A stretch of 64,000 nt of DNA from the sequence record JN673056. One strand, written 5' to 3'. Positions 12,676-18,236 of this stretch are shown piece by piece. The notes beneath the pieces were generated by a model. The model worked only from the letters and a program-made list of their open reading frames with translations. It searched no databases and was not told where the DNA came from. The stretch's first letter is position 1. Each line of letters begins with the position of its first letter. Origin of the DNA: Escherichia phage PhaxI. The translations under genes were made by a program, and so were the position numbers.

Positions 12676-13125
12676 TCAGAAACGGGTATCGCTGACCGTT
12701 CTGTATCGCACACCCTGAAACTGTTTAGCGAGTTTAACAAATTCCATCGCTGGCAAATCAACTTTGTAGACCTTCATGCGCTGTTTGCCGTCCATGTTCA
12801 ACGCAGCGACAAATCGGTGAGACCCGTCAACAACGTAATTGTCAGAAGACACCCAAACTCGACCCATGGGCTTCTTATTTCTGATCTGCTTCATAATCTT
12901 CCAGACCTTCATTTTATTGATTTCGTTCTGGGTAAGACGAAGCATTTTGATGGGCACTTGCGCAGCATCTATGGACACGCCGTTGTCTTCAAGATATTTG
13001 TGAAAATCTTCTTGTTTGTCGGCATCGATTTGCGGCATAGAAGAACGAGAAAGCCCGAGGTTCCCAACAGGAATCCTCAGGCCATTTATGATATTCATCC
13101 AGTCAATAAAGGATGTAAGGAACAT
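12676..13125 (-). CDS. ParB-like nuclease domain protein
   Basis: Motif ..KPMGRVWVSSDNYVVDGSHRFVAALNMDG.. matches the ParB/Srx N-terminal domain signature (vIDGhHR). Confidence 0.5.
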   Translation of the reverse strand: MFLTSFIDWMNIINGLRIPVGNLGLSRSSMPQIDADKQEDFHKYLEDNGVSIDAAQVPIKMLRLTQNEINKMKVWKIMKQIRNKKPMGRVWVSSDNYVVDGSHRFVAALNMDGKQRMKVYKVDLPAMEFVKLAKQFQGVRYRTVSDTRF

Positions 13126-13162
13126 GACACACCTCGGGATATAGGGTTATCCCTTAGTTAGT

Positions 13163-13441
13163 TCATTCGGACTTAAACAGCAATTCGCGAACAGAAGTCC
13201 CAACGATATTTTGGGCGTTCAACAAACGAGTTAAATCATCCATGTCGTATGCTGAATTGGTGACATGGCCCAAGATAATCGCCAACATTCCCTCCAGCGC
13301 TCTCCGATTGTTATTCTCTTCAATGTCAAACTTAATTTCAACAAATCGAGATAGCATTCTGGATTGAGCATGAGTTTCGTTGGTTTTGCTCTGTATAATA
13401 TCTTTGATTTCCGAACGAGCAATACTTCTTTGATCTGTCAT
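13163..13441 (-). CDS. hypothetical protein (92 aa) starting MTDQ
   Basis: Preceded by conserved hairpin-RBS cassette (see repeat 13425-13510); AAGGAA SD. Confidence 0.45.
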   Translation of the reverse strand: MTDQRSIARSEIKDIIQSKTNETHAQSRMLSRFVEIKFDIEENNNRRALEGMLAIILGHVTNSAYDMDDLTRLLNAQNIVGTSVRELLFKSE

Positions 13442-13510
13442 GATATAGTTCCTTCATTTCAAATGGGCGGGGCAAAGATACCCCGCCGTGGGTTTATAGG
13501 GTAACAAGTG
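13425..13510 (-). repeat. terminator-RBS-start cassette, copy A (hairpin GGCGGGG-N8-CCCCGCC then CATTTGAAATGAAGGAA..ATGACAGATCAA)
   Basis: About 75 percent identical over about 70 bp to 13985-14070, including the first four codons (MTDQ) of the downstream gene. Confidence 0.6.
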
Positions 13511-14000
13511 ATACGGTAAAAACCATCGTCCCATCTGTTGTCATTTTTCTTGAAACTGGGAAGACGCGAGGCTGACAGAATATCCATTCTTTCTCCATGG
13601 ACGCCAAGTCCAGCATATCCATTTCTGATTCATCGCCTTTGTTCACAAATTTTTCTAGAGAACCAAAGACATTAAGCCCCTCTGGGAGTCCGTTTCGATG
13701 TTTATAACAAATGCGGGCAACAGCTTTGGTTCCATACGATTTAGAAAATTGTTTGGCCACATGCTTCAGTTCGCTGAAACTAAGACAAGAATCCCATGTC
13801 TGAAACATGTCTCCTCGTTCAAACATCATCTCCAAACGCGCAACGTCCTCTTTAGGCAACCCGCGATAAAGTGTGGTCATCTGCGGTTCGCGTAATTCTT
13901 GCACCAGACCACGGATGGCAGGGGAAACAGTGCCAGGGCGCATGATGTGGGACTTATCATGGACGAGGTAAAATAAATCTTGAATTTGTTGATCGGTCAT
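13494..14000 (-). CDS. hypothetical protein (168 aa) starting MTDQ
   Basis: Preceded by copy B of the hairpin-RBS cassette; no motif recognised. Confidence 0.45.
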   Translation of the reverse strand: MTDQQIQDLFYLVHDKSHIMRPGTVSPAIRGLVQELREPQMTTLYRGLPKEDVARLEMMFERGDMFQTWDSCLSFSELKHVAKQFSKSYGTKAVARICYKHRNGLPEGLNVFGSLEKFVNKGDESEMDMLDLASMEKEWIFCQPRVFPVSRKMTTDGTMVFTVSLVTL

Positions 14001-14070
14001 GATGTATTTCCTTCATTTCAAATAGGCGGGGTAATCATACCCCACCCTAAGTTATAGAATTAACTGATGT
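13985..14070 (-). repeat. terminator-RBS-start cassette, copy B
   Basis: Hairpin GGGGTA-ATCA-TACCCC followed by CATTTGAAATGAAGGAAATACATCATGACCGATCAA on minus strand; paralogous to 13425-13510. Confidence 0.6.
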
Positions 14071-14350
14071 GCTTCAGAAGAGCGAAGAGGATCGCGGCCT
14101 TGGCTTTCACCTTTCCGACGACGCCTGTTTCGACATCGACTTCTTCGGCAACCCAATCTTTTCCCTTCTTGCTGATGATAACATCGCGGCGCTGGGCATA
14201 TACTTCTTTGGTCGCATACACACGACGGAACCCTTTAGCGCGGAGCAAGCCCCAATTACGATCATCTCCACTGAGTTCTACCATTTGTCTCATGATATAT
14301 CTACCTTTCACCTGTGAACCCATCGTTCGCCAGTTATTGAATATACGCAT
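14060..14350 (-). CDS. hypothetical protein
   Basis: ORF in operon; likely shorter than track ORF (internal Met MRQMVELSG). Confidence 0.35.
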   Translation of the reverse strand: MRIFNNWRTMGSQVKGRYIMRQMVELSGDDRNWGLLRAKGFRRVYATKEVYAQRRDVIISKKGKDWVAEEVDVETGVVGKVKAKAAILFALLKHIS

Positions 14351-14412
14351 TTGCCTTATAGAAGTAAACCCCTAAAAGTAAAAATCCCCCAACGTTTGTT
14401 GGGGATCTTCAG

Positions 14413-14745
14413 TTACTTGCGCAGGGCAACCACGTATTCGGCAAGTTCACCCATGGTCGGGTCGTCGCCTTTACCGCCCAGCCAGCCATCAGAGATCTCG
14501 ACATTGAACTCTTCTTCTAGTTCCATGACGATTTCGATGGCATCAAGATCGTCGCCGCCGAGGTCTTTCTTGGTGCGGAGGCCAGCCAGTTTATCCAGGG
14601 CGTCATTCATAATCACTTCCGCGTCGACGATGCCTTTGATGCTGCTCTTGTCTTCGTCACTGACTTCCAGGTTCAGATTGTCAGTGGCGTACTGAGCCAG
14701 GTGACGCATTACTTCAACATAAGTTGGTTTGTTTGACATAAGCAT
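14413..14745 (-). CDS. acyl-carrier-protein-like protein lacking the phosphopantetheine-attachment serine
   Basis: KDLGGDDLDAIEIVMELEEEFNVEISD aligns with E. coli ACP [27 protein letters not shown], but codons GAC GAT (DD) replace the DS of the DSL motif; checked on the DNA. Confidence 0.6.
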   Translation of the reverse strand: MLMSNKPTYVEVMRHLAQYATDNLNLEVSDEDKSSIKGIVDAEVIMNDALDKLAGLRTKKDLGGDDLDAIEIVMELEEEFNVEISDGWLGGKGDDPTMGELAEYVVALRK

Positions 14746-14758
14746 ATCTCAAAATGAA

Positions 14759-14774
14759 GGCGGGTTTCCCCGCC
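14759..14774 (-). terminator. GC hairpin (GGCGGG-TTTC-CCCGCC) between vWA gene stop and ACP-like gene start
   Basis: Perfect 6-bp GC stem followed on minus strand by TTCATTTTG; 13 nt upstream of the ACP-like ATG. Confidence 0.4.
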
Positions 14775-14782
14775 AGTTGAAT

Positions 14783-17035
14783 TTAGATTTTGACTTCTTT
14801 TTCAGCCAGTTCGGCAGTGACGGTGTATTTCACCCCATCAACGTCCACATCCATAGTGGATTCTTCCAAATCCAGGTCGGTAAACCAACCATGGCCTGCA
14901 ACAATCCCATAAACTACCTTGGACAGCGTTTTGTTCAGAGATCGAACTTCGTTGATAGCTGCTTTTGCTGCATCACCAATCCAACTTTCGATCAGCTTTT
15001 TCTGAGTCTCTTCCGGTACGCTGGTGATCATCGGCGATTTAACAAACGCATTGTATTCGGCCAGGGCATTAGCGATCAGCTGATCAGCGACATTCAGTTT
15101 TTTACCGTCCGTCTGTTTTTTGATAACAGACGCGATGCTCGGCAGTGAAGATGCGCCTTTGATTTTCACATTCAATTCACGACTCATATAGACATCGGTT
15201 GATTCTACAGAAGAAGTCTTCGGTGAAAATCCATAGTCGCGAATGCCGTTTGCTGACAGGAAATCAGCCGCTTCTTTGCCATATTTTGAAGCCAGACCCG
15301 TAGCGTTGCCTTTTCCAACCAGTTCATCACGGTAGAATTTCAGAACTTTCTGTTTTGCCTTCAATGCTTCACGGCGCACATTGTCTGCAAAGAATTCAGC
15401 AGCACTGATATTCTTTGTCATGGCGCGGTTAACCATTGGGACACTTTCCAGATTTACAATGAAGACTTCCGGCCCACCAAACACATGAACACCCATGGCA
15501 GTCAAATCCTGTGCCACCTTAGCCCGAACAATCGGAGAATCTGCAGTGATAGGCATTGTTTTCAGGTTGATGATACCATCCTTGACAATGGTGTAATTGC
15601 GATAACGCCATGTATCCAGCTCTTCAGGAAGTTCATATTTCTTCTGTACAAACTCGGGCACAACAACCGTCCCGTGTTGAACTGTCTGCACACTGATGTT
15701 AGGACGTTCTGAATTATAGACCAAATTGCTGATCGGGACAATCCCTTTATCATCTGCTGGATTGAATTCCGGCGTCCAATCTTCGTGCTCGGCCAGTTTG
15801 AGCGCCAGGGCTTTACGCTCTTCTTTAGAAGTCGCATTCGCAATCTCTTCGGCCAACTTGTCTTCGGTGTCGTCAACTTTTTGTATAGTACCGCGCCCAA
15901 TGCTCTTGTAAGAGAATAGCGGATGCTTGGTGACGATAGAGACATCTGCTTCAGCCAAATACGTCAGAACATCAACAATGGTGGTGGCGTCTTCAGCCGG
16001 AACCATATTATAATCGATGCCATCAACTCCTCGCAGAGATTCGTCTACGATAGCCTGAGTCAGATCGACTTTGATGTTGGAGTAATCCTGCTTGGTGAAA
16101 CAGTTGCTGTATTGTTTGATGAAGCGGACGTCACCCGTTTTCTTCAGCGCAGCCCAAACCAAATCTGCGTCCATGGTATACACGCCGTAAAATGCCAGCA
16201 CGTATGCCGCTTGGATGTCTGCCAGATTATCCAGCTGGTCGATCATGTTGGGGTTTACAACCCACAGCTGAGAAACGCTTTCAGGGATGCTGACGTGGCC
16301 AATAGGGTGCTCTTCATCAGGATGCACAGCTAAAACAGTCGCCACGCCATTTTCAACATAAATGGCATGGGTGTAAACCAGGGGAACATCGACCACCACT
16401 TTCGGTGAAGAAGTTTTTAGCACGTTTTCCAATTCGGTCTGATATTCATTCTGGCCTTCGGCGAATACGTGGGTCGCACCAGAACGTTCTGCCATTAGCG
16501 CCAGCAGTTCGCGATTACAATACCAACCGTATTCGATGAAGGTAATGTTATCAAACGCTTTGGGCAGTACTTCAGCGGCATCCAGGATTTCATTAGAGCG
16601 CCAGCAGTTGTCATATCCGTCGGTCATGAACGCCAGGTTATTGACATAACCAGGTTTGTTCAGGCTCATCGCGGTTTCAGCAGCCAACTTCAGAGGTTCT
16701 ACAAATCCCGTACAACCTGACGGTTGCAGGAAGCGGTCAATCAGTTTATTGATTTCACTGAGATCGGTCGCGCTATTGATCTGACGGCCAGCGAATACCG
16801 TACCGAAATCACCACGGGATGAAAAGTAAAGAATGCTGACGGTATCTTCTGGTTTAACCAGAGACGGGAGATTTTCCTTCAGATGCTTACGGACTTCTGG
16901 AAGTGAAAGATACATGGACCGGGAGATATCCACAACGATTACATGGTTAGACGGTGCGACGGTCGCAACCGCATTCTTAAATGTTAATGATTCAATCATC
17001 GTTATTACCTTCTTTGGTGGTTTGAGCGGCTTCAC
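14783..17035 (-). CDS. von Willebrand factor A (vWA) domain protein (750 aa)
   Basis: MIDAS motif DxSxS (VVVDISRSMY) in N-terminal domain followed by a long C-terminal region of unknown fold. Confidence 0.5.
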   Translation of the reverse strand: MKPLKPPKKVITMIESLTFKNAVATVAPSNHVIVVDISRSMYLSLPEVRKHLKENLPSLVKPEDTVSILYFSSRGDFGTVFAGRQINSATDLSEINKLIDRFLQPSGCTGFVEPLKLAAETAMSLNKPGYVNNLAFMTDGYDNCWRSNEILDAAEVLPKAFDNITFIEYGWYCNRELLALMAERSGATHVFAEGQNEYQTELENVLKTSSPKVVVDVPLVYTHAIYVENGVATVLAVHPDEEHPIGHVSIPESVSQLWVVNPNMIDQLDNLADIQAAYVLAFYGVYTMDADLVWAALKKTGDVRFIKQYSNCFTKQDYSNIKVDLTQAIVDESLRGVDGIDYNMVPAEDATTIVDVLTYLAEADVSIVTKHPLFSYKSIGRGTIQKVDDTEDKLAEEIANATSKEERKALALKLAEHEDWTPEFNPADDKGIVPISNLVYNSERPNISVQTVQHGTVVVPEFVQKKYELPEELDTWRYRNYTIVKDGIINLKTMPITADSPIVRAKVAQDLTAMGVHVFGGPEVFIVNLESVPMVNRAMTKNISAAEFFADNVRREALKAKQKVLKFYRDELVGKGNATGLASKYGKEAADFLSANGIRDYGFSPKTSSVESTDVYMSRELNVKIKGASSLPSIASVIKKQTDGKKLNVADQLIANALAEYNAFVKSPMITSVPEETQKKLIESWIGDAAKAAINEVRSLNKTLSKVVYGIVAGHGWFTDLDLEESTMDVDVDGVKYTVTAELAEKEVKI

Positions 17036-17266
17036 CTTCCGGCTTTGCCAGCATGTGTTCTATGAATTCGCGATTAGTTTCAATCTGTTGGATTAAAACT
17101 TCGCTGGGTTTAAACTGTGAGTCAAGAGAGTCAACTCTTGAACGCAAAAATGGTTTGGGCAAAGTAATTTCCCTCGCTTTACAATTGGGCCATTATACCT
17201 TGGCTTGTTAATTGAAACGCCCAGCAATTTGCCGGACGTTATTGATTTTGAAAGACTTTTGAAGAA

Positions 17267-17992
17267 TTACAAGTATGACACCACGATGGCTCTATACAGC
17301 GCCCCCACGGAATCACCAGGTTGGGCTTTCGGATCTAACAAGAATTTCTTAACACGATCACAAGCTGCTTGGCGTTTGTCTTCTGACAGGTCACACCACG
17401 GATAATCCCCTGAAGCAGCATTACACGTTTTCGCCAAACGCAGGACAAGTTCAGAATTTAGATCTTCAGAAGTCATAAACGAGCGAAGATACGCTTCCAC
17501 CAAAGATCTTGCTTCACCATTACGCCGTTCGTTATAACGTTCATTATCGGTGCGAACAAATTCAACTCGACATCCCCGACTTGGATCCTTGGGATGACGA
17601 AACACGACGGATTGTCCTTTACCCTCAAGGAATTCAGAACCACCCATCTCATGTATCGCTTCCCTTTCTGACACATATTCATCAATGTTGATCTTAGCAT
17701 CTTTGGCGGACACATCGATGATCTGCTTTTCTACTATCGCGCGATATGCTTCCAGTTCCCATAGTTGAGAAAGGGTCTTTTCATAGGCCAGCTGCTTGCC
17801 TATTTCTTCATCGAAGTGGCAGGGGTCTACCGATGTGGAACTATTCTTACCCCACACAATGAACCCATTGTCCATCTTGAAATGGCATGTAATGACGCGG
17901 TGACCACCAACTTCACGGTCTTCATAAATCACTTCGGCGATGTGGGACTTTAGAAGTTCTGGAGTGAGTTTAATCCCTTCACGATTACCCAT
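17267..17992 (-). CDS. hypothetical protein (241 aa)
   Basis: Long ORF, no motif recognised. Confidence 0.45.
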   Translation of the reverse strand: MGNREGIKLTPELLKSHIAEVIYEDREVGGHRVITCHFKMDNGFIVWGKNSSTSVDPCHFDEEIGKQLAYEKTLSQLWELEAYRAIVEKQIIDVSAKDAKINIDEYVSEREAIHEMGGSEFLEGKGQSVVFRHPKDPSRGCRVEFVRTDNERYNERRNGEARSLVEAYLRSFMTSEDLNSELVLRLAKTCNAASGDYPWCDLSEDKRQAACDRVKKFLLDPKAQPGDSVGALYRAIVVSYL

Positions 17993-18236
17993 TATCCACC
18001 CCCACTTTCACTAAACGGTCTAGTAATTGGCGGATATTACGGGGGCAATGTTCTAGATCTTCATCAGACAAATACAGCACGTTGGTCTGAATATCTTTAA
18101 AAGTTGAAAGGTTATTCAACTCAGATTCGACGACGGTTTTCAATTGCGTATACGCTTCATCGCAATAATTTCGGCGGTTGCAGTCGGTCATTACCTGAGA
18201 TAACTTTTCAAAAGATTCTTGTATTTCCTTTGACAT
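17985..18236 (-). CDS. hypothetical protein (83 aa)
   Basis: Overlapping start/stop with downstream gene. Confidence 0.35.
   Translation of the reverse strand: MSKEIQESFEKLSQVMTDCNRRNYCDEAYTQLKTVVESELNNLSTFKDIQTNVLYLSDEDLEHCPRNIRQLLDRLVKVGVDNG

Follow-up and report, generated by a model that had tools for sequence, protein, structure and literature searches.

Hundreds of sequenced phages that are candidates for therapy or biocontrol (the Vi01/CBA120 group) carry a gene labelled "acyl carrier protein", which raises the question of whether its product can carry an acyl group at all and, if not, how it might act. We addressed this question for the copy found in Escherichia phage PhaxI (sequence record JN673056), using a stretch of 64,000 nucleotides that is referred to as a whole as the window. 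The source is a Kuttervirus-like member of Ackermannviridae: positions 13000-18000 share 97.9% identity with Salmonella phage SS9 and 96.9% with Escherichia phage CBA120. The gene lies on the minus strand, where the open reading frame (ORF) list of the window gives a 110-aa ORF at 14413..14745 that opens with the ATG at 14745. Translation probably begins at a second ATG in the same frame, at 14739 (MSNKP...), which has a better-spaced GAGA upstream and agrees with most homologues and with the database protein P0001, which matches the 108-aa form and begins MSNKPTYVEV. Residues are numbered throughout on this 108-aa form, and numbers in the 110-aa form are higher by two. An ORF on the plus strand (14351..14695, 114 aa, Ser/Pro-rich) was rejected as an antisense shadow of the real gene.

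A sequence-only reading of the window had described the product as an acyl carrier protein (ACP) look-alike in which the serine of the DSL motif is encoded as GAC GAT (Asp-Asp). The codons proved to be exactly those: the minus strand reads GAC CTC GGC GGC GAC GAT CTT GAT from 14565 to 14542, which translates into DLGGDDLD, and the GAC at 14553-14551 directly precedes the GAT at 14550-14548. This GAT encodes Asp64, the residue that takes the place of the serine.

The acidic residue was found throughout the family. When 29 database homologues (51-100% identity) were aligned with E. coli AcpP, Asp or Glu occupied the Ser36 column in 28 of 28 full-length sequences (GGD[D/E]LD), while the truncated homologue P0029 ends short of this column. 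More distant members have CDDLD (Aglimvirinae phage CRW-SP2, 37% identity) or GDELD (the Taipeivirus Klebsiella phage May) at the same site, and Serratia phage 3M, which encodes a 90-aa version of canonical length, has FDELD. A profile search of 1.84 billion representatives added seven full-length metagenomic relatives (33-48% identity), all with Asp or Glu. We also identified an un-annotated ACP-like ORF with MDELD in Erwinia phage vB_EamM-Bue1 (MG973030.1; L096 6313-6612; family hidden Markov model (HMM) E=1.5e-11), which falls in a 440-nt annotation "gap" directly after the gene for a VWA-domain protein that is discussed below. All four acidic codons (GAT, GAC, GAA and GAG) are seen at the site, and a Ser codon occurs in none of the 22 genes tabulated. 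Because the acidic residue is fixed family-wide, it is neither a sequencing error nor a strain-specific mutation.

A homologue is carried by 269 phage records, whose hosts include Salmonella, Klebsiella, Escherichia, Dickeya, Shigella, Enterobacter, Serratia and others, and the gene was found in every Ackermannviridae lineage sampled. Pairwise ratios of nonsynonymous to synonymous substitution rates (dN/dS) are ~0.03-0.3 overall and ~0.03-0.16 in the core (residues 53-108), indicating purifying selection and therefore a protein that is functional and constrained. No conserved serine is present elsewhere in the protein, as Ser 2, 27, 32, 33 and 83 of the window protein are all variable in the family alignments. 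A tblastn search with E. coli AcpS returned no match in Ackermannviridae, Sfp-type enzymes not having been searched, and its matches were confined to phages of Listeria, Staphylococcus, Enterococcus and Microcystis.

Homology of this protein to ACPs is well past chance. Across the 27 residues of the helix II region, 17 are identical to E. coli AcpP, which bears out the alignment first drawn from the sequence, and profile comparisons also place the protein among the ACPs. It passed the gathering cutoff of Pfam PP-binding PF00550 (E=3e-7, 31 bits against 20.8 bits) and matched PHROG 4154, "acyl carrier protein", over its entire length (E=2.6e-57; residues 3-110 in the 110-aa numbering against profile positions 1-108 of 108). 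A sequence search of the PDB gave 102 matches at E<=10; all 60 listed (E<1e-3) were ACPs, and the best among those listed was B. subtilis ACP 2x2b (E=7e-7), with the Asp of the query over the DSL serine. Scores against all 11 NCBIfam ACP models were 30-36 bits and far below every cutoff (66-106 bits), including that of TIGR00517 (35.3 against 70.45 bits). The phage protein is accordingly a divergent member of the ACP superfamily and no orthologue of AcpP.

The predicted structure is consistent with this placement. An AF2 model built with 28 homologues (pLDDT 73.7) has helices at residues 7-21, 28-39, 45-52, 64-78, 84-89 and 96-106. When the model was searched with Foldseek, the top PDB matches were all ACPs (probability ~1.0, TM score normalised to the target 0.6-0.75, with an E-value of only 0.04), and the first of them was E. 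coli AcpP in its FabZ complex (probability 1.0, TM 0.69 normalised to the target). Asp64 is the first residue of the helix II equivalent in the model, as the serine is in real ACPs. The protein is strongly acidic, with a net charge of ~-14 and a pI of 4.2.

We then compared conservation along the protein in an alignment of closer homologues (A2) and in a diverse alignment (A3). Within the helix II block, D63, L65, I68, E69, E75 and D84 never vary, D59, D66, M72 and I82 hardly do, and E76 is nearly invariant in A2. In terms of E. coli AcpP, the equivalents of D35, L37, E41, E47 and D56 are invariant in A3 and those of D38 and M44 nearly invariant; the E48 equivalent is nearly invariant in A2, and the V40 equivalent is also among the invariant or nearly invariant positions. 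These conserved positions presumably make up the face that ACP-dependent enzymes grip. Beyond this block, the diverse alignment shows little or no variation at W86, D92, P94, Y7 and V10. They lie in an N-terminal helix and in a W-G-DDPT loop that is three residues longer than in E. coli AcpP, both of which are absent from the 90-aa form of Serratia phage 3M. Judging from these alignments, the main lineage has gained two conserved family-specific elements, residues 5-24 and residues 86-95. In the model, the N-terminal helix may be either helix I or an additional helix ahead of it. The segment between this helix and the helix II block (residues 25-52) is hypervariable, with a pLDDT of 56-63, a dN of 0.5-1.0 and DNA identity to CBA120 down to 40%.

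With Asp or Glu family-wide and the helix II contacts conserved, there is strong support for the proposal of the sequence-only reading that the protein cannot be phosphopantetheinylated in the canonical way yet keeps the acidic recognition helix. On this comparative evidence, we regard it as a selected, non-carrier ACP-fold protein, or "dead" ACP. Serine-less ACP-fold proteins as such are already known, and this one runs through the whole of a large and heavily sequenced phage family. Where the homologues listed have a name, it is nearly always "acyl carrier protein", a label that implies a lipid or polyketide metabolism beyond the ability of the protein, so that databases mislabel it. In the literature searched, which covered phage ACPs, loss of the serine and transcriptomes of Ackermannviridae, the gene turned up only in annotation tables, again under this name (PMC3220722, PMC10892097); none of the papers mentioned that the serine is missing, and neither a functional study nor data on expression timing came to light. 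The coordinates of the gene, its parts and its neighbours are collected in Table 1.

Table 1. Positions in the window of the serine-less ACP-like gene, its segments and adjacent features
Feature	Position	Strand	Remarks
Serine-less ACP-like coding sequence	14413..14739	-	108 aa from ATG at 14739
GAT codon, Asp64 (Asp66 in 110-aa numbering)	14548..14550	-	Aligns with phosphopantetheine-bearing Ser36 of E. coli AcpP
Residues 59-84: DLGGD[D/E]LD motif, recognition helix II and next strand (DLGGDDLDAIEIVMELEEEFNVEISD)	14488..14565	-	Most conserved block of the family; model helix 64-78
Residues 86-95: family-specific loop W-x-G-x-x-G-D-D-P-T, between helices III and IV	14455..14484	-	W86, G88, D92, D93, P94 and T95 invariant in A2
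Residues 5-24: conserved N-terminal helix (PTYVEVMRHLAQYATDNLN)	14668..14727	-	Y7 and V10 invariant; M11, L14, A15, Y17 and A18 nearly so; model helix 7-21
Residues 25-52: hypervariable segment, two short predicted helices	14584..14667	-	Additional to the loop that joins helices I and II in canonical ACPs
GC-rich hairpin followed by T-run	14759..14774	-	Between the VWA stop and the ACP-like start
Terminator-like hairpin	14386..14405	-	Directly 3' of the ACP-like stop codon
738-aa VWA protein (750 aa from upstream GTG)	14783..16999	-	Upstream neighbour; Pfam VWA_3, N-terminal VWA, intact MIDAS; given as context, not as a shown partner

The gene is also an island of divergence. In the comparison with CBA120 (14383-14676), consecutive 100-nt intervals across the gene are 78%, 69% and 40% identical, with flanks at ~100%. 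Among Kutterviruses that otherwise match at ~100%, three or more alleles are exchanged as a cassette; these share 61-73% identity with the window protein and stand behind VWA genes of 95-99% identity. The allele of the window is rare, with identity of >=99% in 14 of the 269 records and of 60-80% in 187 records; its closest relatives are in Shigella phage Ag3, Enterobacter phage EspM4VN and Salmonella phage SKML-39 (89-92%). The neighbouring gene is far better conserved family-wide, as in CRW-SP2, with 82% identity for the VWA protein against 37% for the ACP-like protein. The gene behaves as a cassette that evolves fast and recombines, while helix II and the C-terminal core stay rigid. Such rapid, cassette-like evolution is common in host-interaction genes.

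Compared with bacterial type II ACPs (E. coli AcpP, B. subtilis AcpA; PF00550, TIGR00517), the phage protein shares the small acidic helical fold, and its helix II retains the equivalents of D35, L37, D38, E41, M44, E47, E48, F50, I54 and D56 of AcpP. It differs in having Asp or Glu for Ser36, in being ~30 residues longer, with an N-terminal helix or insert, in its extra W-G-DDPT loop, and in reaching only half of the NCBIfam equivalog cutoffs. The family thus keeps an ACP-like surface without acyl carrying. The nearest conceptual relative is the mitochondrial ACP (mACP) of Plasmodium falciparum, in which Phe reportedly stands in place of the attachment serine. Both are proteins of ACP fold that lack this serine and have nevertheless been retained. 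The serine-less mACP binds Isd11-Nfs1 and is a purely binding subunit of the Fe-S machinery (bioRxiv 10.1101/2021.04.13.439690; PMC8547962). Its partner is a known LYR protein, whereas the phage protein is viral and acidic at the site; the comparison made here is one of fold.

Other phage proteins provide a second comparison. Serine-containing phage ACPs (PHROG 5934 and many IMG/VR contigs) are PP-binding proteins whose helix II is nearly identical to that of the present family, but they mostly keep DSLD, are 71-90 aa long and are presumably true carriers, whereas PHROG 4154 never has Ser. Further serine-less ACP-like domains with Asp or Glu at the same site numbered more than 35 among the best 150 profile hits, some of them in tandem, although the profile is biased toward Asp and Glu and the true frequency may differ. 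The rest of their sequence is unrelated to the Ackermannviridae family and their gene neighbourhoods are different. Looking up the clusters of these distant relatives gave "acyl carrier protein" or no name only.

Several of the serine-less forms lie in other phage lineages that are unrelated to this family. A GDALD lineage (L027-L034, L038, L061, L062) and two DELD forms (L047, L065) lack the serine, compared with DSLD in most IMG/VR phage ACPs. An 82-aa protein with DDLD (P0084) is encoded on a 147-kb phage contig (L004 8001-8249) between the genes for a 306-aa unknown protein and a Mu Gam-like protein. A 113-aa protein from a JGI metagenome (P0148) combines Asp at the serine site with an N-terminal lipoprotein-type signal (…LLLLAGC), implying an exported non-carrier ACP fold.

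Since the serine is absent and the partner-binding helix is kept, the Ackermannviridae protein cannot serve as an acyl carrier and most probably works through binding. The sequence-only reading had proposed a mimic or decoy of host ACP, or else a structural scaffold, and the decoy idea is a reasonable hypothesis. We tentatively favour, with rather less than even confidence, a reading in which helix II docks on an ACP-binding site, most likely that of a host protein, as a non-productive competitor. Helix II would dock stoichiometrically onto the basic ACP-binding patch of another protein, with AcpP-binding host proteins as preferred targets, for example the acyltransferase PlsB, MukB, or enzymes of fatty-acid or lipid A synthesis. 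On a host target, the phage protein would compete without being able to pass on or receive an acyl group. The carboxylate that replaces the serine would lie in the first N-terminal turn of helix II, at the usual place of the prosthetic group's phosphodiester. It may mimic the charge of that phosphodiester at the mouth of partner active sites or simply stabilise the helix, two readings that are compatible with each other. The N-terminal helix and the W-G-DDPT loop may add specificity, and the hypervariable insert may drift or escape recognition.

AcpP is among the most connected hub proteins of enterobacteria. Binding of a host AcpP partner, if true, would represent a new takeover strategy and would offer a natural non-acylatable probe or inhibitor for ACP-dependent enzymes; in the literature searched, no phage protein exploiting AcpP-binding sites is described. 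A bolder form of this proposal is doubtful, namely that an "armless" ACP with a phosphate-mimicking carboxylate jams an AcpP-dependent host hub that is found mainly in gamma-proteobacteria, such as PlsB for membrane phospholipid synthesis or MukBEF for chromosome organisation, while its insert evolves to escape host recognition. Such jamming, if it occurs, would define a new class of phage host-takeover or anti-host proteins that act through mimicry of a cofactor protein.

Precedents for a competitor of this kind exist in E. coli, where apo-ACP inhibits glycerol-3-phosphate acyltransferase and overproduced unmodified AcpP blocks growth through this enzyme (PMC3896788). The common idea is an ACP without a prosthetic group competing on an ACP-dependent host enzyme; that case, however, involved artificial overexpression of the host's own protein, and PlsB is no more than a candidate target of the phage protein. 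Apo- and holo-AcpP activate the MukB ATPase equally (PMC8602292), so that at least one host hub reads the protein surface only. SpoT, in turn, does not bind apo-ACP (PMC3896788), and not every AcpP partner is therefore a candidate.

Several points weigh against docking on a host protein. The evidence fits host and phage targets alike. Helix II resembles the ACPs of B. subtilis and E. coli about equally, so that nothing points to a mimicry directed at enterobacterial AcpP. With host AcpP at ~100 uM (PMC8602292), a competitor would need high expression or much higher affinity. The gene lies behind a terminator-like hairpin and has no obvious promoter of its own. In addition, the preference for Asp or Glu could reflect the stability of the helix N-terminus alone, and this reading of the acidic residue is plausible because other serine-less ACP-like proteins carry Ala (the GDALD phage lineage), Thr, Gly, Phe and others at the site.

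The partner might instead be a phage protein, foremost the 738-aa VWA protein encoded next door, of which the ACP-like protein would be a small subunit or ligand; we consider this unlikely. Here the Asp or Glu would complete the metal coordination of the metal ion-dependent adhesion site (MIDAS), as acidic ligands of integrin I-domains do. Because a MIDAS needs an acidic ligand and the gene lies 40 nt downstream, a protein tipped with Asp or Glu is an obvious candidate. This spacing of ~40 nt recurs in Cvivirinae, Aglimvirinae, Taipeivirus, Erwinia phage Bue1 and divergent metagenomic relatives, and the two genes are adjacent in every Ackermannviridae locus examined except that of Serratia phage 3M, where three genes stand between them. 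The MIDAS residues D24-x-S26-x-S28, T97 and D127 are invariant in one alignment of VWA proteins (A4) and invariant or nearly so in another that spans 41 diverse homologues down to 27% identity (A5), and both proteins left single-peptide traces in one virion preparation (PMC10892097). However, the whole region is collinear in Ackermannviridae, so that the adjacency may be inherited synteny, and the VWA protein stays nearly unchanged while the three ACP alleles swap behind it. No VWA residues co-varied with these alleles in seven Kuttervirus loci, where VWA substitutions are too few to be informative. Furthermore, the VWA protein is found in 502 phage records compared with 269 for the ACP-like gene, and VWA homologues of 23-64% identity have no ACP-like ORF within 3-4 kb, as assessed with six-frame ORFs and family HMMs, in the T4-like phages KP15 and Citrof4, Bacillus phage Internexus, Rhizobium phage RL38J1, Shewanella phage Thanatos-1, the metagenomic locus L099 and an Aeromonas-associated contig. 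The VWA protein is thus found with no ACP-like gene nearby in five other phage lineages, and it clearly functions without one. An obligatory partnership is thus unlikely, and a looser link is possible but not supported. If the VWA protein were the partner, this would give the first handle on a large protein family across several phage families.

Other explanations dispense with a specific ACP-binding site or with the loss of carrier function. The ACP fold could be a convenient small acidic scaffold for a generic helper, such as a divalent-cation binder, a chaperone-like factor or a nucleic-acid mimic. The low pI and high negative charge fit this idea, and an additional carboxylate beside D63 and D66 would reinforce the known cation site A of ACPs. 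Phages are also reported to use acidic mimics against host complexes including MukBEF (PMC7617805). Conservation, however, falls on the helix II contacts and on the hydrophobic residues I68, M72 and W86 and not on overall charge, and the acidic variable insert is the least conserved part, which makes a generic helper distinctly improbable. It is still harder to credit that the protein is a carrier modified at a non-canonical residue or through a carboxylate. T95 is invariant in A2 and replaced only by Ser in the wider set, but in the model it caps the N-terminus of helix IV, far from the recognition geometry of phosphopantetheinyl transferases; moreover, the family has no conserved serine, and tblastn found no AcpS-type transferase in Ackermannviridae. 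We know of no phosphopantetheinyl transfer to Asp or Glu. The gene does evolve faster than its neighbours, as a functionless, decaying remnant of a captured ACP gene would, but this explanation is essentially refuted by the intact ORFs in 269 phage records and many metagenomic contigs, by dN/dS values well under 1, and by many invariant residues that include the family-specific additions.

With regard to the neighbourhood, homologues of the VWA protein in the 502 records come from Ackermannviridae, T4-like Straboviridae, and Bacillus, Rhizobium, Shewanella and Aeromonas-associated phages. A single-sequence comparison of the VWA protein with the PDB gave no match. An AF2 model (pLDDT 86.8) and a PDB profile search retrieved nothing but VWA-domain proteins, some of which carry a beta-sandwich as well (4fx5, archaeal ArnB, ITIH1). 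These counterparts are limited to the N-terminal, VWA-containing part, with TM normalised to the query <=0.31 over 738 residues, and they offer no hint about what the ACP-like protein does. In Klebsiella phage May, a terminator is annotated at the spot equivalent to the hairpin that follows the VWA gene, and no convincing promoter was found in the 37-nt spacer upstream of the ACP-like gene.

On the other side of the VWA gene, a 56-aa ORF (16992-17162, minus strand) without a family match overlaps the VWA start. An ORF of 53-70 aa occupies the same position in all Ackermannviridae loci examined, forming a conserved three-gene block of small ORF, VWA and ACP-like genes. Just upstream of this block, Klebsiella phage May (L003 1045-3560) and a second locus (L091 1027-3542) carry an inserted pair of genes similar to those for ribose-phosphate pyrophosphokinase and nicotinamide phosphoribosyltransferase, which is absent from the window (~17035-17267). 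This suggests that the spot is a hot spot for accessory genes.

Downstream of the ACP-like gene, a 168-aa ORF (13494-14000, minus strand) is named "RNA polymerase ADP-ribosylase" in RefSeq relatives. Its match to a PHROG profile of 1480 positions is confined to positions 1270-1425 (E=9e-16), and it has no Pfam match, so the name may have been wrongly carried over from a far larger protein. A 65-nt direct repeat, 83% identical between its two copies (13430-13494 and 13989-14053), lies at the 5' ends of two consecutive minus-strand genes. Both copies contain a GC-rich hairpin together with a ribosome-binding site and the start codon, and the two proteins begin with the same residues, MTDQ. A similar unit of hairpin and ribosome-binding site also precedes the ACP-like gene, and the whole looks like a reused intergenic cassette.

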